This document shows positions 7,732 through 64,000 of a DNA stretch of 64,000 nt, one piece after another. The stretch comes from Coleofasciculus sp. B1-GNL1-01 (lineage in GTDB: Bacteria > Cyanobacteriota > Cyanobacteriia > Cyanobacteriales > Coleofasciculaceae). The stretch is from NCBI GenBank assembly GCA_040220235.1, contig JAVJTO010000071.1. One strand, 5' to 3'. Position 1 is the first letter of the stretch. Every line of letters starts with the position of its first letter. A model generated the notes under the pieces. It searched no databases. It saw nothing but the letters and a program-made list of their open reading frames with translations, and was not told where the DNA came from. The translations under genes were made by a program, and so were the position numbers.

Positions 7732-8652
7732 TTAAATTACTGCCTGAGGGTGTTGAGACCAAGACTGAATCACCTTGAGTGAGGTTGAATGGCGCGGTTG
7801 GGTTGCATGTCCCTGAGACTGAGCCGCTTTTTGAGCCGCCTGTAGTTCGGCTTGCATGACAATCATCTGAGACATGATGGTTTGCAGTTGCACCTGAAGT
7901 TGCTCAACGTCAGAGGTGCTAGGTGGGGTAACAGTTGATGCAGAAGAAGGAACTGATGTTTTGGGTTGATAACCCAGGAAGTTTTGAGCCGAGGCAAATT
8001 TCGCTGACGCTGTTTGGCTGCTAACTGGATGAGCAGTAGCGAGTTGGGTATGAAAGGGTTGTGTGGTGATGGTGAACGGAACACTCATCGGCTGTTCCTC
8101 AGATTTCACCACAGTAGGTGTTAGTGCAGGTTGCGGTTTAACAGTTTCTTCGACTAGAGGTTGAGCTTCATTTTCAGAAGGTGGAACGATTTCCGGTTCT
8201 GGTTTAACGGTTTCTTCAACCAGGGGTTGATCTTCGTTCTCAGAAAGCAGACCTGATTCTTGTTCGCCTTCTTTCTCTAAAAAATTATTGAGTCCAGCCG
8301 CTGCGAGTCGAGATTTAGAAAGTTTCAGTTCTTCTAAAAGTTGTTCCTTTTCTTGAAGATTTCGCTCTAAATCCGAAAGCTGTTCTTCGGCTTGGGCAGA
8401 TTTCTTAGACGATTGTCGCCACCCAGTTACAGCAATTGTCGCGATTCCCGTCCCTACACCTAAAACACTTGCCAATCCTAAGTAAGGCATCGCAACATCT
8501 CGGAGTTTTCCATGATGTACAGGCTCTTCTTGCAGTTGGATTGTGACCTCTTGATCTCCGAAGAACGCTAGAGGTAAAGTCAAAGCTGAGAAGACGGCGG
8601 TTGAAAGAATTATCGGCGTAAAGAGAAATTTCTTTAAAGGAGAGCCAGTCAT
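7732..8652 (-). CDS. Hypothetical membrane protein with coiled-coil segments
   Basis: 306-aa ORF, two N-terminal hydrophobic segments, internal duplication 'SENE.QPLVEETVKP.P'. Confidence 0.7.
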   Translation of the reverse strand: MTGSPLKKFLFTPIILSTAVFSALTLPLAFFGDQEVTIQLQEEPVHHGKLRDVAMPYLGLASVLGVGTGIATIAVTGWRQSSKKSAQAEEQLSDLERNLQEKEQLLEELKLSKSRLAAAGLNNFLEKEGEQESGLLSENEDQPLVEETVKPEPEIVPPSENEAQPLVEETVKPQPALTPTVVKSEEQPMSVPFTITTQPFHTQLATAHPVSSQTASAKFASAQNFLGYQPKTSVPSSASTVTPPSTSDVEQLQVQLQTIMSQMIVMQAELQAAQKAAQSQGHATQPRHSTSLKVIQSWSQHPQAVI

Positions 8653-53766: not shown

Positions 53767-55365
53767 ATGAATCAGTGTCAACCTCAGCAAGTCTGCATTG
53801 TCACAGGTGGTAACTCAGGTGTAGGTTTGATGACTGCTGTTGGTCTCGCCCAATTCGGTCATCATGTATTTATCGCCTGTCGCTGTGCAAACAAAGCTGA
53901 GAAATCTGTCAATTATATTCGCTCCTCCACCGGAAATCCCAAGGTTGAGTTTTTGCCACTCGATTTAGCCTCCCTTGATTCAGTTCGTACATTTGTGAAA
54001 CTGTTTCAGGACAGACAGCTTCCGCTGCATTTATTAGTGAATAATGCGGGAGTTTTCAATGCCAGAGGCACAACTCAAGAAGGATTTGAACTCATTTGGG
54101 GAATTAACTATCTGGGTCACTTTCTACTGACAAATTTGCTACTGGAAACGCTTCAACATTCAGCCCCCAGCCGAATCATCATGGTTGCCTCTGACTTAGC
54201 CTTGCGCCCCACTTCTATCAAATGGGAATGTTTTGTCAAGAAGACACCCTTAAATTTTATAGAACTGTATGCCGTATCAAAACTTTGCTTAGTGATCCTG
54301 ACTCAAGAACTGGCACAGCGCTTAAAGACTACCAACATAACTGTTAACGCAATTCATCCTGGATTTGTGCAATCTAATATAACCTTAGGGCATCGCTTAA
54401 GCAAGTATTTGGGCATTGGCATTTCGCCCCAAGAAAGTGCTTCTGGGTTGCTGACTTGTGCAACATCTGCTGATTTTGCAGCGGTAACGGGTAAGTTTTT
54501 TGATTATCAACAGAACGAAATAGAACTTCCTGATCTAGCAAAAGATACTGAACTCGGTCAACAGTTGTGGGAACAGAGTGGCTTGTGGACAGGCTGTAAT
54601 CAATACAATCCGAAAACACCCGCCAAACCTGAGACGACTGTTGGACTTTTAGAACCCTATTCGCTGGCATTAAGTCCCTCTGAACTCGGTTCCCTTACCC
54701 AAGCTATTGTTGAAACTGTCTTGCCTAACCCCCCGCTTAAAAACCAATTTTATCATTTTATCCACCTTTTATTTAATTTCAAGATTGGAGCAATTATTCT
54801 ACTTGTCAATCAACTCCGCAAGAAAGAGTTTTATATGGAAAGACATCTTGATTCAGAGGCTGTTTGGGCGATCTGTCAGGATAAAAAGTTACGACAGAAA
54901 TTGAACGAGTATTTGGGTGAAACATTAGTCTTGTGGCGTTCGGAAATTTGGGTAAATTATCCCTCGCAACAACTGATTCCATTTTGGCATCAAGACTCCT
55001 ATCCCAATCTGCTTCAAGGCGAAGGGAAAACGATCAATGTCTACATTGCACTAACCGAGGTTAATGAACGGAATGGGTTTGAGTACATCCCTAATTTTCA
55101 ACTCACTCCGGATGTCTCAGTTAAAATGAAAGACCCATTTAGTGGCAATCACTTGTTTAATTTGACAGAAGACTTAGAACAGCAAGCCATTCCTGTGGTT
55201 TTGCGTCCTGGAGAATTTGTTTTATTTACCGACCAACTCATGCATCGTTCGATTCGCAATACCAGTGGTCAAGTTCGGCTAGCCCTCACCCTGCGGCTGA
55301 CTCAACCCTCTGTTCATATCGTGTCAAGCTATAGTCCTATTTACAGTAAGCCTGTCTTGTTGTAA
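53767..55365 (+). CDS. SDR oxidoreductase (retinol dehydrogenase-like) fused to a PhyH-like Fe(II)/2-oxoglutarate dioxygenase
   Basis: TGGNSGVG, LDLASLDSV, NNAG, NYLGHFLLT, YAVSK; then 'WHQD', 'LRPGEFVLF...HRS..N.....R'. Confidence 0.85.
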   Translation: MNQCQPQQVCIVTGGNSGVGLMTAVGLAQFGHHVFIACRCANKAEKSVNYIRSSTGNPKVEFLPLDLASLDSVRTFVKLFQDRQLPLHLLVNNAGVFNARGTTQEGFELIWGINYLGHFLLTNLLLETLQHSAPSRIIMVASDLALRPTSIKWECFVKKTPLNFIELYAVSKLCLVILTQELAQRLKTTNITVNAIHPGFVQSNITLGHRLSKYLGIGISPQESASGLLTCATSADFAAVTGKFFDYQQNEIELPDLAKDTELGQQLWEQSGLWTGCNQYNPKTPAKPETTVGLLEPYSLALSPSELGSLTQAIVETVLPNPPLKNQFYHFIHLLFNFKIGAIILLVNQLRKKEFYMERHLDSEAVWAICQDKKLRQKLNEYLGETLVLWRSEIWVNYPSQQLIPFWHQDSYPNLLQGEGKTINVYIALTEVNERNGFEYIPNFQLTPDVSVKMKDPFSGNHLFNLTEDLEQQAIPVVLRPGEFVLFTDQLMHRSIRNTSGQVRLALTLRLTQPSVHIVSSYSPIYSKPVLL

Positions 55366-55639: not shown

Positions 55640-57289
55640 ATGTCCTTTAAAAAGTTTCTGGTAATTGGCACAACTCTAGTCTTGGTAGGGGGTGGCGCGG
55701 CTTATCTCTACGCTAAAGGTTTTTGGGGAGTCGCCGACACCCCAGCCGCCAGTGCTAAAGTTATCCCCGATGAAGCGGTGATGGCGGGCTTTATTTCCAC
55801 TGACTCTCAATCCTGGATGAAGTTGCAGAAGTTTGGTACGCCCGAACTGCAAACGTTAGTGAATCAAAGTCTGGAAGATTTAAAAACAGAAACCTTTAAG
55901 GATTCCCAAATTAGTTACGAGGAAGATTTAAAACCGTGGTTGGGGAATGTAATGGTCGCGGTTTTACCAACTACCTCTGCTGAAGCGGTAGACGACTCCA
56001 ATCTGTTGACAGTTGTTACGATTAAAAATAAGTTCAGTCTGTTAAAGTTTGCCAACCAGTTGAAAACTGACGAAAAACTGGGAAAAACTGATGAGATTGA
56101 CTATAACGGGTTGACAATTTTAGAAACAATCGACGAGGGACAAACCTTCTATTCAGCGGTATTGAGACAGCATTTGGTCATATCCGAAGACTTGAAACCT
56201 GTGCAATTAGCGATTGATAGCTATAAGGGAGAACCGTCTCTGGCTAGCGAAGGGAATATTGCCACACTCTTCTCCCAGGATATGGATCTGCTCAACCCCG
56301 TTGCCAAGTTTTATATCCCTGACTATACTGCTTTTGTGCAAGAAATGGTTGCTAATAATCCAGGAGTTGCTCCCTTACCACCTGCTACATTAGAACAATT
56401 GCAAGCGTTTAAGTCAGTTAAAATGGGGGTAGGAATTGATGACGTAGGAATCCGGCTGAAAACCGTTGCTAATGTTGAACCATCGGATATTCAAGTCGAA
56501 TTTCAGCCCAATCCCGGTCAAATTATCAGTCAATTCCCCGCTTCAACGATGATGCTGTTAACCGGAAATGGAATTAGTCAGGGATGGGAAATAATGAGCC
56601 AATCCGCCCAATCCGATCCCCAATTGCAGCAAGGACTCAACAGCCTCAGAAGTGCCGCCAATAGCATCAATTTAGACGTAGATCAGGATATCTTTGGCTG
56701 GATGGATGGGGAATTTGCCATCGGCGTGATTCCTTCCACAGAAGGGATACTCGCCCCCATCGGCTTTGGCGGAGTGATCGTCTTTCAAACCAGCGATCGC
56801 GCCACCGCCCAAGCCACGTTAACTCAACTTGATACCCTCGCCCAACAGAATACTATTCAAGTTTCACCCACAACAGTTCAAGGACAATCGGTTACCAAAT
56901 GGGCAATTCCGGGACAAGGAACCTGGTTAGGACATGGTTGGCTAAACCAGAATTCCCTGTTTATCGCTATTGGCGAACCAATAGTAGAAAAAATGCTGGC
57001 GAATCCTGAACCGTCTCTGGATCAAAGTGAGTCGTTTATTACGGTAACTAAAGCTTTACCGGAATCTAACAGCGGTTACTTTTATTTAGATATGGATAAA
57101 ACCATGACAGTGGTGAATGATTTTATCGAAAATACCACCCCAGATACACCAGAACCTGACTCTGATACCCAAACCGCTTTAGCTATTTTAAATTCCGTGC
57201 AAGGGATCGGTGGAACCGTGACTCAAGACAACCCTTCTACTCATATTTTTGAAATGATTGTTACGCTTAAGCCTAAAACAGAAAACTAA
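55640..57289 (+). CDS. DUF3352 domain protein
   Basis: N-terminal anchor, 'YEEDLKPWLG', 'DIFGWMDGEFAIG', 'GYFYLDMD'; AGGAG RBS. Confidence 0.8.
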   Translation: MSFKKFLVIGTTLVLVGGGAAYLYAKGFWGVADTPAASAKVIPDEAVMAGFISTDSQSWMKLQKFGTPELQTLVNQSLEDLKTETFKDSQISYEEDLKPWLGNVMVAVLPTTSAEAVDDSNLLTVVTIKNKFSLLKFANQLKTDEKLGKTDEIDYNGLTILETIDEGQTFYSAVLRQHLVISEDLKPVQLAIDSYKGEPSLASEGNIATLFSQDMDLLNPVAKFYIPDYTAFVQEMVANNPGVAPLPPATLEQLQAFKSVKMGVGIDDVGIRLKTVANVEPSDIQVEFQPNPGQIISQFPASTMMLLTGNGISQGWEIMSQSAQSDPQLQQGLNSLRSAANSINLDVDQDIFGWMDGEFAIGVIPSTEGILAPIGFGGVIVFQTSDRATAQATLTQLDTLAQQNTIQVSPTTVQGQSVTKWAIPGQGTWLGHGWLNQNSLFIAIGEPIVEKMLANPEPSLDQSESFITVTKALPESNSGYFYLDMDKTMTVVNDFIENTTPDTPEPDSDTQTALAILNSVQGIGGTVTQDNPSTHIFEMIVTLKPKTEN

Positions 57290-57932
57290 GCAAAAAAAAG
57301 GTAGAGGGTAAAAGACCATTACTCACCTTTCGCTCAAGCCACTATCCAATTCAGATCCCCCAAACCTGTTTCATGGTTAAATAGCTATTAAGTGATAAAA
57401 GGCTTGTATCGACCGACGCTAGGACTTGCACTACGTCCGCGATCGCGTCGCTCACGAATCCTGACACGGACAGCCGTGGCTTTTATGAAGTTTTCGTGAA
57501 GTTGACCTCTGTGTCAGTTTCAGGACAATTCATAAATTTTGATTATAGTTAGAACGAATTTTCGTGACTTGAGGGGTCTGGCTTTTTTAAGTTTTGTAAC
57601 TAAACTGAGAATAGGACTGAAGAGGTTTGGTGAGCTGCCGCTGTTTTTTTATATTAGATGGGAATTTGCGTTTTTTGTCAAGATAATTTGACATTTTAAT
57701 AATTGATGTTTATTGATAATTAGTTTAACTATTTAATTTAATAAAGATTGTGTAAAGGAAAGGATTTTTTGCGATTTGTAACTTGACAGAGATTCCCAAG
57801 ACTGTAAACTGACGGGCAGTTGTCTTTTTATACGGATAGAAGAATTAAGGAGAGAATCGTGCGATCGCCTGAACGTTGCCCTGGGTTACTGGATGGCTGT
57901 AAAGATAGCGTTTCTGGGAGTTGGCAGAAGTT

Positions 57933-58238
57933 ATGAGTTCTGAAAATACGGTGTCAATGTCTTCGATTATCGTCGCCAGTCAGGAACAGCGCTCATCAGA
58001 TTTGACGGGAGAGACGGTGATCCTGAATCTCAAGTCGGGAATGTACTACGGCTTGAGTGCTGTGGGTGTGAGTATCTGGAATCTGATTCAGGAACCGAAA
58101 GCGGTAAGCGAGGTGCGGGATGGGATTCTAGCAAAATATGACGTTGAGCCTGAACAGTGCGATCGCGATGTCTTGGCGTTGCTGGAAGAGTTGGCAACAG
58201 AAGGATTGATTGAGGTGCGGGATGCAGCAGTTGCATAA
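57933..58238 (+). CDS. Lasso peptide B1 protein (PqqD-like RiPP recognition element)
   Basis: 'DLTGETVILNLKSGMYYGL..VG..IW.LI', 'YDVEPEQC.RDV..LL.EL..EGLI'; TTG 57921 is an alternative start. Confidence 0.92.
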   Translation: MSSENTVSMSSIIVASQEQRSSDLTGETVILNLKSGMYYGLSAVGVSIWNLIQEPKAVSEVRDGILAKYDVEPEQCDRDVLALLEELATEGLIEVRDAAVA

Positions 58239-58671
58239 GTTTCTCAGTTTAACAGCTTGCGATCGCGTTTTGTTATGCCGTGCCGTTTTCTTGCTGGGCG
58301 CTGTTCGCTTGGGGCTGGGGGTGCTACCGTTTCAGCGGTTTCGCCACCTGTTAGCGGGTGTGAAGGGGACAAGATGGTTGTATCCTAGACCTGATTGTCG
58401 GATAACCCTCGATCAGATTGTTTGGGCAGTTGAGGTGGCGAGTTATTATATGCCCGGTCAGGTTAAGTGTTTGGCACGGGCGCTGACAACACAAATTCTC
58501 ATGAGTTGGTACGGTTACACCTCGGAACTGAGAATTGGTGTGGCAAAGGGGGAAGCCGGACAGTTTGAGGCTCATGCTTGGGTGGAAATTCAGGGACGGG
58601 TGGTAATGGGTCATCTCCGGGACTTGTCCCGATATACGCCAATGCCCTCATTTGAAGGGGGTGGGTTATGA
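58222..58671 (+). CDS. Lasso peptide B2 leader peptidase (transglutaminase-like)
   Basis: 'KCLARAL', 'LRIGV', 'FEAHAWVE'; overlaps B1, ATGA overlap with the cyclase. Confidence 0.93.
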   Translation: MQQLHKFLSLTACDRVLLCRAVFLLGAVRLGLGVLPFQRFRHLLAGVKGTRWLYPRPDCRITLDQIVWAVEVASYYMPGQVKCLARALTTQILMSWYGYTSELRIGVAKGEAGQFEAHAWVEIQGRVVMGHLRDLSRYTPMPSFEGGGL

Positions 58672-60722
58672 GTGGGATAGTGGGGATTTACTATCTCGAT
58701 GGGCGTCCCGTGGAACGGGAAATCCTGGGGCGGATGGTAGATAGATTGGCACATAGAGGTGCTGATGGTGCGGGGATTTGGTGTGAAGCGTCGGTGGGTT
58801 TGGCACATCGGATGCTGTGGACGACACCGGAATCGTTTTTGGAAAAGTTGCCTTTGGTGAGTTCTCAAGGACATTGGGTACTCACGGCGGATGCGCGGAT
58901 TGATAATCGTGAGGAACTGATTGCGGCGTTGGGGTTAAATCAGTGTCCGGTTGAGAAGATTACCGATAGTCAGCTTATTTTGGCGGCTTATGAACGATGG
59001 GGGAATGGTTGTCCGCAACGGTTGTTAGGTGACTTTGCGTTTGCGATATGGGATCAGCGTCAGCAGGTGCTGTTTTGCGCCAGAGACCATAGTGGGGTGA
59101 AGCCGTTTTACTATTATTATTCACCGGGTAAGTTTTTTGCCTTTGCCTCGGAGATTAAGGGGGTATTGGGTTTACCGGAAGTCTCGCGTCGGGTGAATCA
59201 GGCGAAGGTGGGGATTTATTTGTGTCAGTTAACGGGGTTTGCTTCGTTAAAGTCGGATACGTTTTACCAGGATATTCGGCGTTTACCCCCGGCGCAGTGG
59301 CTGGAAGTGAGTGAGAGGGGGTTGAATTTTCAGTCCTATTGGGATTTGGATGCGGCGGCGCAAACGATACAGTTCCAGTCTGATGGGGAGTATGTGGAGG
59401 CGTTTCGAGAACGGTTTACCCAGGCTGTGGCTTGTCGCTTGCGGAGTGCTTATCCGGTGGTATCTACTCTGAGTGGTGGGTTGGATTCGTCGTCGGTTAG
59501 CTGTGTGGCGAGGAATCTGTTACGGGGGCAAAACCTCTCCCCCAACCCCTCTCCTGCAAGGAAAGCTGGGGGGGTTAGGTTTCCCTTATTGACGGTTTAT
59601 GGGGATTGTGGTGTACCGTCTACGGATGAGAAAGGGTATGTGAATGCGGTATTGGCGCAGGGGGGGTTTCAGCATTCGATCGCTACGGTGAGGAATCCCA
59701 TTGGTTCAGCGCAAACGGTGACGCCTTGCATAGATAGACCCGTGCAAATGCCTACACCTGCCATGTTACTGGCTTCTTTGCAGTCCGTGCAGCAGCAGGG
59801 GGCGCGGGTGGTGTTGACGGGACATGATGGGGATACGATTGTGTCTCATGGTCAAGATTATCCGGCTGAGTTAATTGAGTTGGGTAAGTGGGACTGTTTA
59901 AAGGATATTGTTATATCGCGTTTGGATAAAGGGAAAGAATCAGCGGACAAGAAAAGGGTAGAGTATGAACTTTATCAGTATGTTCTGCCTTATTTTAACC
60001 AGTTGGTCAAAGATTTTAAGATAAAGGGCTATTGGCAGGGACTCTCTAAGGTTTCTCGGAATTGGTCGTTCTCCCTTCGTGGTATCGTCAGTTTGCCCGT
60101 TCGGAGTATTTATTACAATTTACGTCAGGTTAAGTGGCAGGCTTATAATTCAAAGATTAATCGTGATTTTGCTCGTCAGGTTGGTTTAAATGGGCTACTT
60201 CAGGATGAGTTGGACTATCAATTGGCTTATTTGCCGTCGGAATATTTGAATCATCATCGCGGGATAACCTCGGATAATATGCAGGATATCAATGAGCAAG
60301 TTGATGGGATGAGTGCGGCGTTGGGGATAGAACCGCGTCATCCGTTTCTGGATAAGCGAGTTGTGGAGTTGTGTTTGGCGGTTCCGGCTCATTTGAAATT
60401 TTGCAATGGGTTTGGGCGGGGGGTAATGCGACGGGCGATGAAGGATATTTTGCCGGAGGAGGTGCGGCGGCGGGGGAGTAAGGTGGATTTTTATGGGTTT
60501 ATTATTCCAGAGATGGAGAGGGATGAGCGGGAGTTGATTGAGGAGGTGTTGGGGGGAGAGTCGGAGTTATCGCGTTATATAGATAGTCATGCTTTATATC
60601 AAGAGTACCGGGAGTTTTCAAAGTCTGCGACTCCTTGGAAGCAGAGGAGGCGTGGGGCAAGAATGATTGCTTGTGCAATGTTCTTGGCAATGTGGTTGAG
60701 GCAATCTAAGGATTGTGGTTGA
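58668..60722 (+). CDS. Lasso peptide cyclase (asparagine synthetase homologue)
   Basis: MSG start (Ntn Cys absent), 'DARIDNREEL', 'GDFAFAIWD', 'LSGGLDSS', 'HPFLD.RVVE'; operon with B1/B2. Confidence 0.93.
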   Translation: MSGIVGIYYLDGRPVEREILGRMVDRLAHRGADGAGIWCEASVGLAHRMLWTTPESFLEKLPLVSSQGHWVLTADARIDNREELIAALGLNQCPVEKITDSQLILAAYERWGNGCPQRLLGDFAFAIWDQRQQVLFCARDHSGVKPFYYYYSPGKFFAFASEIKGVLGLPEVSRRVNQAKVGIYLCQLTGFASLKSDTFYQDIRRLPPAQWLEVSERGLNFQSYWDLDAAAQTIQFQSDGEYVEAFRERFTQAVACRLRSAYPVVSTLSGGLDSSSVSCVARNLLRGQNLSPNPSPARKAGGVRFPLLTVYGDCGVPSTDEKGYVNAVLAQGGFQHSIATVRNPIGSAQTVTPCIDRPVQMPTPAMLLASLQSVQQQGARVVLTGHDGDTIVSHGQDYPAELIELGKWDCLKDIVISRLDKGKESADKKRVEYELYQYVLPYFNQLVKDFKIKGYWQGLSKVSRNWSFSLRGIVSLPVRSIYYNLRQVKWQAYNSKINRDFARQVGLNGLLQDELDYQLAYLPSEYLNHHRGITSDNMQDINEQVDGMSAALGIEPRHPFLDKRVVELCLAVPAHLKFCNGFGRGVMRRAMKDILPEEVRRRGSKVDFYGFIIPEMERDERELIEEVLGGESELSRYIDSHALYQEYREFSKSATPWKQRRRGARMIACAMFLAMWLRQSKDCG

Positions 60723-60754
60723 ATGGTTTTTGATTTGTTTAGTTAAGGAGATAG

Positions 60755-61057
60755 ATGATGAGTATTGAGAGAGAAATGATAGATAACCACGGAGTAAATC
60801 TTCCCTATGAACAACCGAGTATTAAGAAGTATGGAACGATGAAAGAATTTACACTAGGTTCAAGTGGAAGTGGAGGTGATGGGATGGGAAGCGACGCAAA
60901 GACAGAGCAAAACACTAGAATAAATGATGTTAATCAAAATGCAAGTGCAGGTAACGACGATCCTCGTTCATTTGATGATAATGTTTTCTTTGGAGATAAC
61001 AAAAACTCTGCCGCCGATTTTTTAATACAAGACGTAACTATCGGAAATGACGATTAG
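60755..61057 (+). CDS. Lasso peptide precursor A1 (34-aa leader, 66-aa core)
   Basis: AAGGAG RBS; Y(-17), P(-14), I(-12), G(-8), T(-2); core starts GSSGSGGD. Confidence 0.88.
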   Translation: MMSIEREMIDNHGVNLPYEQPSIKKYGTMKEFTLGSSGSGGDGMGSDAKTEQNTRINDVNQNASAGNDDPRSFDDNVFFGDNKNSAADFLIQDVTIGNDD

Positions 61058-61139
61058 TGTGATCGCTCACTATGACTAGCTTGGCATAAGCTGTCATGCA
61101 TTTAATTTATTAACGAGAGCGAATGCGAATAAGGGTTAA

Positions 61140-62081
61140 ATGTTTTTCTACCAAGCCTATGGTTTAAATATTCATTCTGACTTTCCTCTTCCTGAATTAC
61201 TACCAGGAGGAGATAAAGCAGATATTTACATCCAAAAAGGAAAACTCAAACCCCCACCCTTAGAACCCACCTCTATCAACCGTCAAGGAATAGAAGCCCT
61301 ATTTGGTGGCACCACTCAAGAAGCCTACCTGCACTGGCAAGGAATCGCCACCCTACTCGCAAAAGATGGCAAAACCCTAATTGTTGACACCTACTCCAAC
61401 AACATCAAACCCCAACTCTTAAACCTGTACATCTTGAGCGAAGCATTAGGCATAATCCTCTATCAAAGAGGCTTATTTTTACTCCATGCCAGTGCTATAA
61501 AAATAGGGGAACAAGTCGTTATCTTTGCAGGGACTCCAGGTGCAGGGAAATCTACCACGGCTGCTGCTTTTGCCAAATGCGGCTATACCGTACTCGCTGA
61601 TGATATGGTCGCTATATCCCTCGATAATCCAAGGAAACCAATGGTTTACCCCGCGTTTCCCCAGATAAAAATCTGGCAATCAGCCGTCAAGGGATTGGGT
61701 TATAATCCATCGTTATTACCCCCACTTTTTCCCGGTTCCCGCAAACGGGTTATCCGGCAAAAAGAAAACTTTCCCGTTGACCCATATCCCCTGACTCATA
61801 TCTTTATATTAGAGGAGGGAGCAGACCTTAAGATTACCAAAATGGATGGAACCAATGCTTTTTTTAGCCTAGCACGTTTCTTTCCCTTACCCAGTGATCT
61901 TCTGCAAGGAACTGCCCTTGAGCGTCATTTCCAGCAGTGCGTTCAATTGACAGGGGATGTAGATATTTGGAAGGTGGAGAATCCGAAGAATTTTGGGGCG
62001 CTGAAGCAGTTGGTGCGTTGGGTTGAAGGAGAGTTAGGAGAAGATAGACCCAAAAATCAAGTTTTTTGTTCGATTAGTTAA
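61140..62081 (+). CDS. HPr-kinase-like kinase (lasso-cluster type)
   Basis: 'YQAYGLNIHSD', 'LLHASAI', Walker A GTPGAGKST, 'LADD'. Confidence 0.85.
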   Translation: MFFYQAYGLNIHSDFPLPELLPGGDKADIYIQKGKLKPPPLEPTSINRQGIEALFGGTTQEAYLHWQGIATLLAKDGKTLIVDTYSNNIKPQLLNLYILSEALGIILYQRGLFLLHASAIKIGEQVVIFAGTPGAGKSTTAAAFAKCGYTVLADDMVAISLDNPRKPMVYPAFPQIKIWQSAVKGLGYNPSLLPPLFPGSRKRVIRQKENFPVDPYPLTHIFILEEGADLKITKMDGTNAFFSLARFFPLPSDLLQGTALERHFQQCVQLTGDVDIWKVENPKNFGALKQLVRWVEGELGEDRPKNQVFCSIS

Positions 62082-62097
62082 ATTAAGGAGAAAGAAG

Positions 62098-62298
62098 ATG
62101 AATAGCGATGTAGGAAATATGGAGAAACAGGAAATGAACCTGCCTTATAAGCAACCCAATCTAAAGAAATACGGCTCGATGAAAGAGTTTACACTTGGTT
62201 CAGGTGGAAGTGGCGGCGATGGCATGGGGAGTGATAATGACGCAATAGCAAATGATGCAAAAGCTATTGATGATGGTGATTTTCAGGTGGGGGATTGA
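62098..62298 (+). CDS. Lasso peptide precursor A2 (33-aa leader, 33-aa core)
   Basis: AAGGAG RBS; YKQPNLKKYGSMKEFTL|GSGGSGGD. Confidence 0.88.
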   Translation: MNSDVGNMEKQEMNLPYKQPNLKKYGSMKEFTLGSGGSGGDGMGSDNDAIANDAKAIDDGDFQVGD

Positions 62299-62449
62299 TT
62301 GTAGAAAATAACGCATATACTATATCTGGTTTTGGAGAGGCGAACAAAAAAATTAAAGCTATTTGTTAAAAAAATGTTCTAATATTATCTTCTTTGAACA
62401 AAAATTGTCTGAAGATTCTTGTTAAGTGGTTCAATAAAGGAGGACTAAG

Positions 62450-62704
62450 ATGAAGATTGATGAAACCAGAGGAAATAAAATGGAACCTCTTTTCTATGAG
62501 CAACCAAGTCTCAAGAAATACGGAACGATGAAAGAGTTTACTCTTGGTTCAGGTGGAAGCGGCGGTGATGGCATGGGAAGCGACACCAATAATTACGCAC
62601 ATACAGATGGAGATCCAGAAGTTCCAGTTGTTGATTTACCATCAGATCATGAAGGACAAGTAGATCCCAATAGGGTTGCAATTGACGAAACTAAAGTAGA
62701 TTGA
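62450..62704 (+). CDS. Lasso peptide precursor A3 (32-aa leader, 52-aa core)
   Basis: AGGAGG RBS; YEQPSLKKYGTMKEFTL|GSGGSGGD. Confidence 0.88.
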   Translation: MKIDETRGNKMEPLFYEQPSLKKYGTMKEFTLGSGGSGGDGMGSDTNNYAHTDGDPEVPVVDLPSDHEGQVDPNRVAIDETKVD

Positions 62705-62864
62705 TTTGGATCACCCCGTTTTGGATAATGCATTACCAAAAGTAACGAATTGGCAAGGATTTCAGCCCCTTTACAAGAGTCAACGTGCCAAATTGGGATG
62801 CTCCAGATTGATTAGGAGATAGTTGATAATTATTAACTAACTTAGTTGTCAAGTAAAAGTTACT

Positions 62865-62929
62865 GTAGGATGGGCAATGTAAAGCAACAATATCAAGTTT
62901 TTGAGAAGTTTAAATATTGCCCACCCTAC
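62865..62929. repeat. GTAG-capped inverted repeat (GTAGGATGGGCAAT...ATTGCCCACCCTAC)
   Basis: Read directly. Confidence 0.8.
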
Positions 62930-62970
62930 ATAAAAATAAGCTTGCTTAAAATTCATGATAGCTGCCGAGT

Positions 62971-64000
62971 ATGTATTCTAAATTCGCAAATCTCATCTCC
63001 CCTTTCAACATAGAAGACTTTTTCCACCATTACTACGAAAAAAACTACCTCCACCTCTCCCGCAATACCCCAACCTACTACGACGCCATCCTCAACACTG
63101 ACGACATCGACTTATTTTTCCAAAACAAAACCTTACCCAGTTCCCATCTGCGAGTCGTCAACAACGGCGAAGAATTACCCGCCTGGAAATGGTCGCACCG
63201 CAACTCATCAACCGCTGATAACGATAGACTCTTCGTCCTCTTCAACGAAGGAAATACCCTAATTATCAACTCCGGCAATAGCTCAATTCTCAAACTAATC
63301 AACTATTGTGCCGACCTCGAACGCGAACTGCAAATCCGCTTACAATTCAACATCTACATCACCCCCGTCAACGCCCAAGGATTTGCCCCCCACTACGATG
63401 ACCACGATGTCTTCATCTTACAAACTACAGGCACCAAACGCTGGCGTTTATACCATTCTCCCATAGAACTTCCCTCCCAAAAACAACCCCACTGTAAACA
63501 AAAGGGTAAATACGAACTCGGAGAACCCACATTTGAAGTCGAACTCCAACCCGGTGACTTACTCTATATTCCCAGAGGACTCATCCACGACGCCATCACC
63601 ACCGACACCGCCTCCGTTCACATTACCTTGGGATTACATCCCAACTACTGGTTTGAACTCCTCCGAGAAGTCGCCGACATCGCCGAAGACAAAGCCGAAT
63701 TCCGACGCGCCGTTCCCAATGCTTTAATGAATGAACAGCATCACCAAGACTTTAAAGCCGAATTTCGCCAACGCCTGCAAGCATTAATCGATACCCTAGA
63801 CGTAGACGAACTCCTCACCCGGAAATCTGAACAGTATATTAGTAACAAACGTTCCGAAGACCAAAACCGCTTCAAAGATTCCATTCAACTCAATAAGCTA
63901 AATCTCAACACCGTCCTATCCCGCCGGGAAAATATCCTATTTAAACTGGACAAAGACGACGAAAAAATCTATGTCAAATTCTACAAAAAGACCCTCGATT
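62971..64000 (+). CDS. JmjC/cupin Fe(II)-2OG oxygenase, YcfD/NO66 ribosomal-oxygenase-like; partial, runs off the window
   Basis: Absent from the ORF track because it has no stop in the window. Manual translation: MYSKFANLISPFNIEDFFHHYYEK...NIYITPVNAQGFAPHYDDHDVFILQTTGTKRWRLY...LQPGDLLYIPRGLIHDA. Confidence 0.9.
   Translation, partial: MYSKFANLISPFNIEDFFHHYYEKNYLHLSRNTPTYYDAILNTDDIDLFFQNKTLPSSHLRVVNNGEELPAWKWSHRNSSTADNDRLFVLFNEGNTLIINSGNSSILKLINYCADLERELQIRLQFNIYITPVNAQGFAPHYDDHDVFILQTTGTKRWRLYHSPIELPSQKQPHCKQKGKYELGEPTFEVELQPGDLLYIPRGLIHDAITTDTASVHITLGLHPNYWFELLREVADIAEDKAEFRRAVPNALMNEQHHQDFKAEFRQRLQALIDTLDVDELLTRKSEQYISNKRSEDQNRFKDSIQLNKLNLNTVLSRRENILFKLDKDDEKIYVKFYKKTLD

Follow-up and report, generated by a model that had tools for sequence, protein, structure and literature searches.

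We analysed a 64,000-nucleotide stretch of DNA (the window; positions 64001-128000 of contig C71) from the cyanobacterium Coleofasciculus sp. B1-GNL1-01, whose genome comprises 8.66 Mb at 45.5% GC. At its 3' end the window carries a gene cluster for lasso-type peptides, a group of peptides made on ribosomes and modified after translation (RiPPs), in which genes B1, B2, C, A1, kinase, A2, A3 and a JmjC gene follow one another on the plus strand (Table 1). An initial annotation had proposed a B1-B2-C trio, and all three products score above the curated NCBI cut-offs for lasso enzymes, with Pfam in agreement: B1 reaches 81.3 bits on NF033536 (lasso_PqqD_Bac; cut-off 80) and matches PF05402 at 3.3e-19, B2 reaches 122.4 bits on NF033537 (lasso_biosyn_B2; cut-off 33), and C reaches 674.1 bits on NF033535 (lass_lactam_cya; cut-off 525). 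No second lasso cluster was found elsewhere in the same genome. In comparison with a related metagenome contig, L014, the ratio of non-synonymous to synonymous substitution rates (dN/dS) was 0.14 for B2, 0.15 for C, 0.11 for the kinase gene, 0.13 for A2 and 0.18 for the JmjC gene, indicating that these five genes are under purifying selection. Judged from its sequence, the locus is a genuine lasso-type RiPP cluster with several precursors and belongs to a cyanobacterial subfamily that is rare.

The three small precursor genes of the initial annotation are all present, each with AAGGAG or AGGAGG 4-7 nt upstream of its ATG; in A1 a start at the second ATG, 60758, would place the ribosome-binding site at the more usual distance of 7 nt and give a product of 99 aa. 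They do not follow B1-B2-C as an uninterrupted set, as had been proposed, since the kinase gene separates A1 from A2. Lasso leaders are recognized in the RODEO literature by the motif YxxPxLx3Gx5Tx, which all three leaders carry in the form Y-x-x-P-x-[IL]-K-K-Y-G-[TS]-M-K-E-F-T-L (Y-17, P-14, I/L-12, G-8 and T-2). The cores share, as annotated, the start GS[SG]GSGGDGMGSD (GSSGSGGDGMGSD in A1, GSGGSGGDGMGSD in A2 and A3), so that each has a small first residue, Gly1, and an acidic residue, Asp8, within the span (positions 7-9) expected of a ring acceptor. The annotated core lengths of 66, 33 and 52 aa also hold; they fall outside the range of 15-30 aa that PMC6993621 gives for characterised lasso cores (the record is 33 aa in PMC13352647), and leave 58, 25 and 44 residues past the ring in A1, A2 and A3, respectively. 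All three cores end in Asp. This shared C-terminus, the kinase gene and the JmjC oxygenase gene did not figure in the initial annotation, and the presence of the two overlooked genes changes the predicted chemistry.

Table 1. Genes and features of the cluster, in window coordinates; positions beyond 64000 are window-equivalent and lie past the window end
Feature	Position	Strand	Description
B1	57921-58238	+	PqqD-type RiPP recognition element / leader-binding chaperone; first ATG at 57933
B2	58210-58671	+	Transglutaminase-like leader peptidase; PF13471, 3.9e-25
C	58668-60722	+	Asparagine-synthetase-like isopeptide-forming lasso cyclase; Asn_synthase and GATase_7 domains
A1	60755-61057	+	Precursor, 100 aa; leader 60755-60856 (34 aa), core 60857-61054 (66 aa), Asp end
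Variable cassette 1	60880-61136	+	A1 tail and spacer; no homology to L014
Kinase (K)	61140-62081	+	HprK/ScmC-type P-loop kinase, 313 aa; located between A1 and A2
A2	62098-62298	+	Precursor, 66 aa; leader 62098-62196 (33 aa), core 62197-62295 (33 aa), Asp end
Variable cassette 2	62318-62969	+	Whole A3 region; mostly unmatched in L014
A3	62450-62704	+	Precursor, 84 aa; leader 62450-62545 (32 aa), core 62546-62701 (52 aa), Asp end
JmjC gene	62971-64158	+	JmjC/ROX-type Fe(II)/2-oxoglutarate oxygenase, 395 aa; after A3, running past the window end at 64000
HTH-like open reading frame	64716-65204		162 aa; flanked by the JmjC gene and the ABC remnant
ABC / NTP_transf_5 fragments	65390-66636		ABC transmembrane fragment (318 aa) and opposite-strand NTP_transf_5 fragment (126 aa)

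The precursor family combines a constant head with hypervariable tails

Neither Pfam nor NCBIfam holds a model that covers the precursors. The homologue search proposed in the initial annotation did recover relatives. With A3 as query, a word-index search gave 40 candidates, of which 38 lay at E <= 0.01, the named sources of these being Symploca, Moorena and Dapis, and a profile of the precursor family, on which A1 scores 3.0e-28, gave 102 matches at E <= 0.001 (62 at E <= 1e-10) in 1.84 billion representative sequences. Among 401 sampled cyanobacterial genomes the profile matched two, including the present one; 18 of them carry a lasso cyclase and 31 a homologue of the kinase. Since homologues were found, the leader is near-invariant and A2 is under purifying selection, the precursors are more than chance open reading frames.

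When the 38 homologues were aligned, the leader Y, P, K-K-Y-G, M, K and T(-2) were invariant, as were G4 and S5 of the core. Core statistics were taken from two sets of distinct sequences, one of 49 cores (A3 word-index matches, A2 and related loci) and one of 118 (word-index and profile matches and A2). Ser5 is present in 49/49 and 114/118 cores and Gly4 in 47/49 and 111/118. An acidic residue occupies position 8 in 42 of the 49 and 89 of the 118 cores, and lies anywhere at positions 7-9 in 94 of the 118; Ser5 is therefore better conserved than the presumed ring acceptor. Position 10 is hydrophobic (M, L, I, F or V) in 32/49 and 70/118 cores and position 11 is Gly in 36/49 and 72/118. Together these positions define an 11-residue head, x-[ST]-x-G-S-G-G-D-x-hydrophobic-G, that is kept across the family.

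Beyond this head the tails are hypervariable and 11-74 aa long. Core length ranges from 17 to 72 aa (median 51) in the smaller set, the larger having a median of 47 aa and a maximum of 74 aa, with 92 of its 118 cores longer than 33 aa. In the larger set the tails consist of 15% D, 14% G, 11% N, 8% S, 7% P and 7% T, W, Y, H and C being all but absent, and their median net charge is -5. Family tails have a median of four bulky residues, and some share a degenerate C-terminal module. The last residue is Asp in 28/49 and 48/118 cores, and Asp lies among the final three residues in 42/49; Ser is terminal in 13/118 and in none of the three cores of this genome. Given an Asp frequency of 0.15 in the tails, the excess of C-terminal Asp corresponds to a binomial p of about 1e-11, a value inflated by the kinship of the sequences. 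This enrichment argues that the far C-terminus of the precursor is under constraint.

These results refine the picture of the tails given in the initial annotation, which had described a constant ring joined to interchangeable acidic tails. The conserved head, the hypervariable tails and the cassette replacement described below all agree with that description. The tails are indeed divergent; they are not fully 'unrelated', in that all three end in Asp. The suggestion that they are mini-proteins fared worse: the AlphaFold2 model of A3 shows no fold (mean predicted local distance difference test score (pLDDT) of 60, predicted template modelling score (pTM) of 0.14, tail without secondary structure) and tail composition looks disordered, so that the tails are probably disordered polyanions.

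A second type of precursor occurs in the same clusters (L011 9384-9605 and L018 912-1118; also P0220 and P0227). It has the same leader and Ser5, a head that reads NG[AS]xSGS, a poly-Gly run and a C-terminus resembling DDSxDALV; having no acidic residue at positions 7-9, it is unable to close a 7-9-membered ring in the usual position. In six other family members (P0193, P0198, P0204, P0208, P0219 and P0223) Val replaces Thr at leader position -2, reminiscent of the penultimate-Ile leader variant named in the title of PMC10368454.

Tails are exchanged as cassettes between closely related clusters

The tails of A1 and A3 have been replaced as cassettes between this cluster and its close relative, neither tail showing detectable homology between the two. 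At the DNA level L014 is 93.9% identical to the present cluster over B1/B2/C, 92.3% over the kinase gene plus A2 and 95.2% over the JmjC gene. The blastn alignment stops at 60879, in the Asp8 codon of A1, and restarts at 61137, three bases before the kinase gene. Within the interval between A2 and the JmjC gene, only the part encoding the A3 leader and head (62488-62583) resembles the L014 precursors, at 83-89%, and the first and third precursors of L014 have cores quite different from those of A1 and A3. A2 is kept whole in L014, at 93% nucleotide identity and with the low dN/dS given above.

Contigs assembled from three RNA libraries of other studies (X1, X2 and X3), in which DNA may be present and read depth cannot rank genes, reveal a like replacement of the A1 tail, with a junction from 60854 to 61137 and 281 other letters in between. 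They mostly cover the cluster of a relative that is about 95% identical; the few pieces identical to the present strain include A3, over 62387-62615 in X2 and 62389-62597 in X1. In locus L004 a copy of the last 47 cyclase codons (81% protein identity) lies between two precursor genes, at 8410-8550, which suggests tandem duplication of a unit made up of the cyclase end plus a precursor as one origin of the cassettes.

Kinase and oxygenase genes accompany the precursors

The kinase scores below the cut-offs of existing family models, with 22.7 bits on Hpr_kinase_C (7.7e-05; cut-off 33.3) and 39 bits on HprK-related TIGRFAMs (cut-off 200), and the best sequence match among solved structures reaches an E-value of only 0.059. 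Its AlphaFold2 model is of high confidence (pLDDT 92.7, pTM 0.90), and residues 1-303 of the model align to phosphoenolpyruvate carboxykinases with Z 15.7 and a root mean square deviation of 4.5 Å over 258 residues, a fold class that also includes HprK/P. We found 1427 homologues at E <= 0.001, many of them with PF27840 (named ScmC in the Atlas) and some annotated as 'serine kinase'. When 31 sequences down to 39% identity were aligned, H116, K137, D154 and D155 were invariant, as was the P-loop G131/G134/G136-K137-S138-T139. The four residues presumably correspond to the conserved and mutationally essential His-Lys-Asp-Asp motif described for lasso kinases (PMC9266682), and on the evidence of sequence and model the enzyme looks active.

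The product of the JmjC gene matches PF08007 (JmjC_2) at 5.4e-31, and its nearest relatives of solved structure are the ribosomal oxygenases (ROX) NO66 (8.5e-33), MINA53 and YcfD. Residues H141, D143 and H206 are invariant in 32 homologues and align to the metal-binding region of NO66. A complex prediction for the oxygenase and A3 gave a score of 0.00 without controls, which counts neither for nor against binding.

Related clusters and the 3' end of the locus

Loci of the same family were found in Nostoc sp. CHAB 5844, Dapis sp. BLCC M126, Cylindrospermum sp. NIES-4074 and nine metagenome contigs. Wherever the stretch of DNA suffices, the order B1-B2-C-A-K-A-JmjC-ABC-NT recurs, and eight of the nine loci extending beyond the last precursor have the JmjC gene. 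The kinases of these relatives are 62-94% identical to the present one and the JmjC proteins 64-95%. Twelve contig sizes recur among the close kinase and the close JmjC matches, which indicates that the two sets of matches come from the same contigs. In metagenome contig L010 (2144-2714) the JmjC match is split into residues 2-116 and residues 235-309, suggestive of a deletion within the gene. In Cylindrospermum sp. NIES-4074 the full cluster (locus L005) lies on AP018273.1, a 36,087-bp record of a complete genome and possibly a plasmid; this location and the patchy distribution of the family (two of the 401 genomes) hint at horizontal spread.

Past the window end the present cluster departs from this arrangement. 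An open reading frame resembling a helix-turn-helix (HTH) protein occupies the spot where the JmjC and ATP-binding cassette (ABC) genes of the relatives overlap; three more copies with 82-83% identity lie on contigs C11, C40 and C83 of the same genome, and it is probably a mobile or repeated element. The ABC protein of the relatives is 592 aa long and their NTP_transf_5 protein 369-430 aa, and the genes for both lie on the cluster strand. Matches to the local NTP_transf_5 fragment come after the ABC gene in L004, L005 and L011, where the NT-like open reading frame spanning them has 369 aa (L011) and 430 aa (L005). The junction of the local ABC and NTP_transf_5 fragments lies inside a 157-kb contig, away from its edge. 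Taken together, the HTH insert, the truncated ABC gene and the inverted NTP_transf_5 piece indicate that an insertion and an inversion or deletion have disrupted the cluster at its 3' end.

On the other side of the cluster, the upstream neighbours encode a 532-aa fusion of short-chain dehydrogenase and PhyH-type dioxygenase domains (53767-55365) and a DUF3352 protein (55640-57289); tblastn with both found no counterpart beside the related clusters L003-L005, L007 and L010-L018. Base composition is strongly biased along the locus, in opposite directions at its two ends, B1, B2 and C having a GC content of 0.49-0.53 and a GC skew of +0.27 to +0.35 and the JmjC gene a skew of -0.39, against a genome-wide GC content of 0.455 and a skew near 0; related loci L003, L004, L005 and L011 show a weaker bias of the same sign. 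Scans for promoters (17 promoter-like sites against 10.9±2.9 in shuffles) and terminators (4 against 7.3±2.5) did no better than shuffled sequence.

Comparison with other kinase-bearing lasso loci suggests targets for the tailoring enzymes

We compared the cluster with 17 other kinase-bearing cyanobacterial loci. In 15 of these C stands beside K, typically in the order B1-B2-C-A-K-ABC-(NT), and a JmjC match at E <= 1e-4 is absent from all 17. They yield 23 distinct cores of 8-58 aa, of which one is probably spurious; four of the cores have Ser as their last residue and none has Asp. A simple rule by which cores would end in Ser without the oxygenase and in Asp with it is therefore not supported for Ser, which is terminal in only these four of 23. 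The other clusters of the NF033535 clade thus resemble the present one in gene order, enzyme families (C 39-45% and K 27-35% identical) and often long cores of up to 58 aa, and differ in having other leaders and rings, no N-terminal GSGGD head, no JmjC gene and no Asp end. We conclude that long cores and the kinase are general in cyanobacterial lasso clusters, and that what sets the present subfamily apart is its JmjC gene, its GSGGD head and its Asp terminus.

The tails of eight of these 23 cores contain GS-x(1,2)-D-[GA], whereas shuffled sequences gave a mean of 0.33 and none of 2000 shuffles reached eight. A kinase-free control set could not be assembled, since nearly all of the 18 cyclase-bearing genomes have a kinase match. 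One core of locus L049 (G035:C49) has the hexapeptide GSGGDG near its C-terminus, identical to G4-S5-G6-G7-D8-G9 of the present head, and G-S-x(1,2)-D-[GA]-hydrophobic occurs near the C-terminal part of the tail in the precursors of L049, L053, L057, L061, L064 and L065. The shared element G-S-x(1,2)-D-[GA] may be a recognition motif of the kinase.

What might the two tailoring enzymes act on? Characterised lasso kinases are described as acting on a C-terminal Ser (PMC9266682). Since the present cores have no such residue, Ser5 is the most conserved residue of the family cores, and the GS-x-x-D-G context recurs, the kinase may phosphorylate the invariant Ser5 of the head, a proposal to which we give somewhat less than an even chance; the alternative is a new hydroxyl at the C-terminus. 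Such a hydroxyl would be the work of the oxygenase. ROX enzymes hydroxylate side-chain beta-carbons, and the enrichment of terminal Asp is seen only where the oxygenase is present, so that the C-terminal Asp is its candidate substrate, again with a likelihood that falls a little short of even. There is precedent for such a reaction in CanE, which, as PMC9266682 describes, beta-hydroxylates the C-terminal Asp of the linear canucin precursor with the aid of B1.

Relation to characterised lasso peptides

Among characterised systems, paeninodin and pseudomycoidin of Bacillota, the only phosphorylated lasso peptides listed in a 2025 paper, come closest in gene content, with split B1/B2, C, a His-Lys-Asp-Asp kinase, NTP_transf_5 and an ABC exporter, the last two being broken in the present genome. 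They differ, as far as the accounts drawn on here describe them, in that the kinase acts on the C-terminal Ser, the cores have about 20-30 aa and no oxygenase is included, while the present cluster has cores of 33-66 aa, a JmjC oxygenase and its best-conserved Ser inside the ring. Canucin A (Streptomyces canus) shares with it a 2-oxoglutarate oxygenase in the lasso cluster, CanE, and an Asp end of the precursor; by contrast, canucin A is described as a 14-mer without a kinase, and CanE is likened to the JmjC_2 enzyme by role only. Pandonodin, whose tail accepts fusions, and achromonodin-1 have in common with it a lasso scaffold on which long tails or loops are tolerated; at 33 and 30 aa they are the largest characterised lasso peptides in the 2026 review PMC13352647. 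The present family, with a median core of 47 aa and a maximum of 74 aa, goes well beyond these. Prochlorosins and cyanobactins follow a comparable logic, in which one enzyme set processes many hypervariable cores behind a conserved leader, with several precursors per cluster and fast turnover of the cores. They belong to a different RiPP class, and it is the present family that keeps a constant cyclised head and varies the tail only.

Bioinformatic work had already pointed to lasso clusters in cyanobacteria (Tietz et al. 2017, as cited in PMC8600333 and in PMC9967302), and Zyubko et al. 2019 mention a Stanieria lasso cluster with a PsmK homologue. Because such genome-mining reports exist and NCBI keeps a cyanobacterial cyclase model, the lasso class in cyanobacteria is already known. 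It is called 'underexplored in Cyanobacteria' in PMC9967302, and the word stem 'cyanobacter' is absent from the 2026 review. In the literature searched we found no characterised cyanobacterial lasso peptide, no characterised counterpart of this family (these precursors may already feature in the RODEO paper's supplements), no occurrence of the leader heptapeptide KKYGTMK in literature text and, judged from the listing of hits, nothing relevant on a lasso peptide paired with a JmjC protein. What is new here is the head of the subfamily, the length of its tails, their turnover, and the pairing of oxygenase with kinase.

Discussion

We favour, with reasonable but by no means full confidence, a pathway in which one enzyme set puts a Gly1-Asp8 macrolactam on interchangeable acidic tails and the JmjC protein and the kinase tailor the precursors. 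B1 would bind the near-invariant leader YEQPsLKKYGTMKxfT-x, B2 would cut after the residue that follows Thr(-2), here Leu(-1), and C would join the N-terminus of Gly1 to the side chain of Asp8, so that every product would receive the same Gly/Ser macrolactam head, x-S/T-x-G-S-G-G-D, followed by x-hydrophobic-G. These three steps are well supported by homology and by conservation. The rest of the core, a long and probably disordered tail rich in Asp, Asn and Gly, would stay attached. The ROX/JmjC oxygenase would hydroxylate the C-terminal Asp, by analogy with CanE, and the HprK/ScmC-type kinase would phosphorylate Ser5 or the hydroxyl newly made at the C-terminus. That tailoring takes place on the linear precursor is supported by precedent, since PadeK, ThcoK and PsmK are described as phosphorylating linear precursors, PsmN then placing a hexose on the phosphate (PMC9266682 and PMC6993621). 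In intact relatives a PsmN-like NTP_transf_5 enzyme and the ABC exporter would complete the pathway; both are broken here. Gene identities, the precursor family, synteny, the pattern of conservation, cassette replacement and purifying selection come directly from the analysis; the position of the ring, retention of the tail, both modification sites, topology and biological role we infer.

Several observations weigh against this pathway. Terminal Asp is not general, as 70 of the 118 cores end in another residue, and it is not tied strictly to the oxygenase, locus L015 (K-A-NT) having no JmjC match and yet a core that ends in Asp. In 29 of the 118 cores position 8 is not acidic, so that not every family member can form a ring of the Gly1-Asp8 type. 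The counts behind the binomial and shuffle figures were taken from sequences akin to one another, so that these figures overstate independence. The usual kinase target, a C-terminal Ser, is missing in this genome and rare in the family; Ser5 as its replacement is a guess, and the invariance of Ser5 may serve substrate recognition instead of modification. A stable thread is doubtful, as the ring and the residues that follow are nearly all Gly and Ser and the tails have few bulky residues. Pseudomycoidin, which has weak plugs, was isolated unthreaded as a branched cycle (PMC9266682 and PMC6993621), and its authors propose that C-terminal phospho-glycosylation helps to keep the thread (PMC6993621). 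Finally, the ABC exporter, 592 residues when intact, retains only residues 1 to about 300 and abuts an inverted NTP_transf_5 piece some 100 aa long; the local pathway may be incomplete.

The last point leads to the alternative that the cluster is decaying in the present genome and yields no exported product, its intact-looking genes being remnants of a recently disabled pathway. The cut exporter, the inverted fragment and the insertion of a four-copy HTH element would all be expected from such decay, and this is the sole lasso cluster of the genome. We nevertheless consider decay unlikely, since B1, B2, C, the kinase, the JmjC protein and three precursors are full-length with strong ribosome-binding sites, and dN/dS relative to L014 is uniformly low (0.11-0.18). 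In addition, two of the RNA libraries, in which DNA may have been carried over, yielded contigs identical to A3, and a full-length ABC homologue with 40% identity is encoded on contig C17.

It is also conceivable that the tails are followers or recognition handles that are trimmed after cyclisation, so that the product would be a short lariat or lasso derived from the conserved head. Conservation ends after core residue 11, where a processing site may lie, the tails evolve and recombine as freely as expected if their exact sequence is unimportant, and lasso products truncated by carboxypeptidases are described as common in PMC13352647. Set against this, no protease gene is conserved in the cluster, a Gly/Ser lariat of 11 residues cannot be threaded, the composition of the tails is strongly biased and not random, and the recurrent Asp end together with the whole-gene dN/dS of A2 shows that the tail is constrained; on balance we regard trimming as unlikely, a little more so than decay. 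Least of all do we credit the view that GSGGD(G) is a kinase or tailoring motif, with the macrolactam elsewhere or absent and linear, leader-less phosphorylated acidic peptides as products: Ser5 does exceed the acidic residue at position 8 in conservation and persists with the leader in members without an acidic residue at 7-9, the motif is enriched in the tails of other kinase-linked cores, and in the L049 precursor the ring must lie elsewhere, yet B2 and C, both intact and conserved, show purifying selection, Asp8 fits the spacing of lasso cyclases (7-9), and no other acidic position is conserved.

The products might be lasso-capped disordered polyanions that bind metals or minerals, perhaps in the manner of metallophores, in mat-forming cyanobacteria. 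In this joint proposal, which is speculative and which we hold to be improbable as a whole, the Gly/Ser ring would be threaded by, or slide on, a long acidic axle, and plugs would be replaced by an enzyme-made lock, namely a C-terminal Asp that is beta-hydroxylated and then phosphorylated (and glycosylated in intact clusters), phospho-Ser5, or both. The tails would form a library of recombining cassettes whose Asp and Asn residues are possibly hydroxylated at multiple sites by the ROX-type oxygenase. A metal-binding or sheath role of the tails is pure conjecture.

Should the full cores be matured, they would be the longest lasso-type peptides by far, reaching 66 aa in this cluster and 74 aa across the family where the record is 33 aa. 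They would also include the first ring made almost wholly of Gly and Ser and the first combination of a ROX/JmjC oxygenase with an HprK-type kinase, and would bear on the field's open question of the smallest plug and the longest tail that a lasso cyclase can cope with. The kinase, which lacks the textbook C-terminal Ser substrate, gives an opportunity to test for new site specificity. The replacement of cassettes while leader and head stay constant indicates that a single B1/B2/C set accepts very different tails, and provides a natural precedent for tail-display engineering. The class itself is not categorically new; what this cyanobacterial subfamily does is to stretch the rules of lasso peptides for size and plug.

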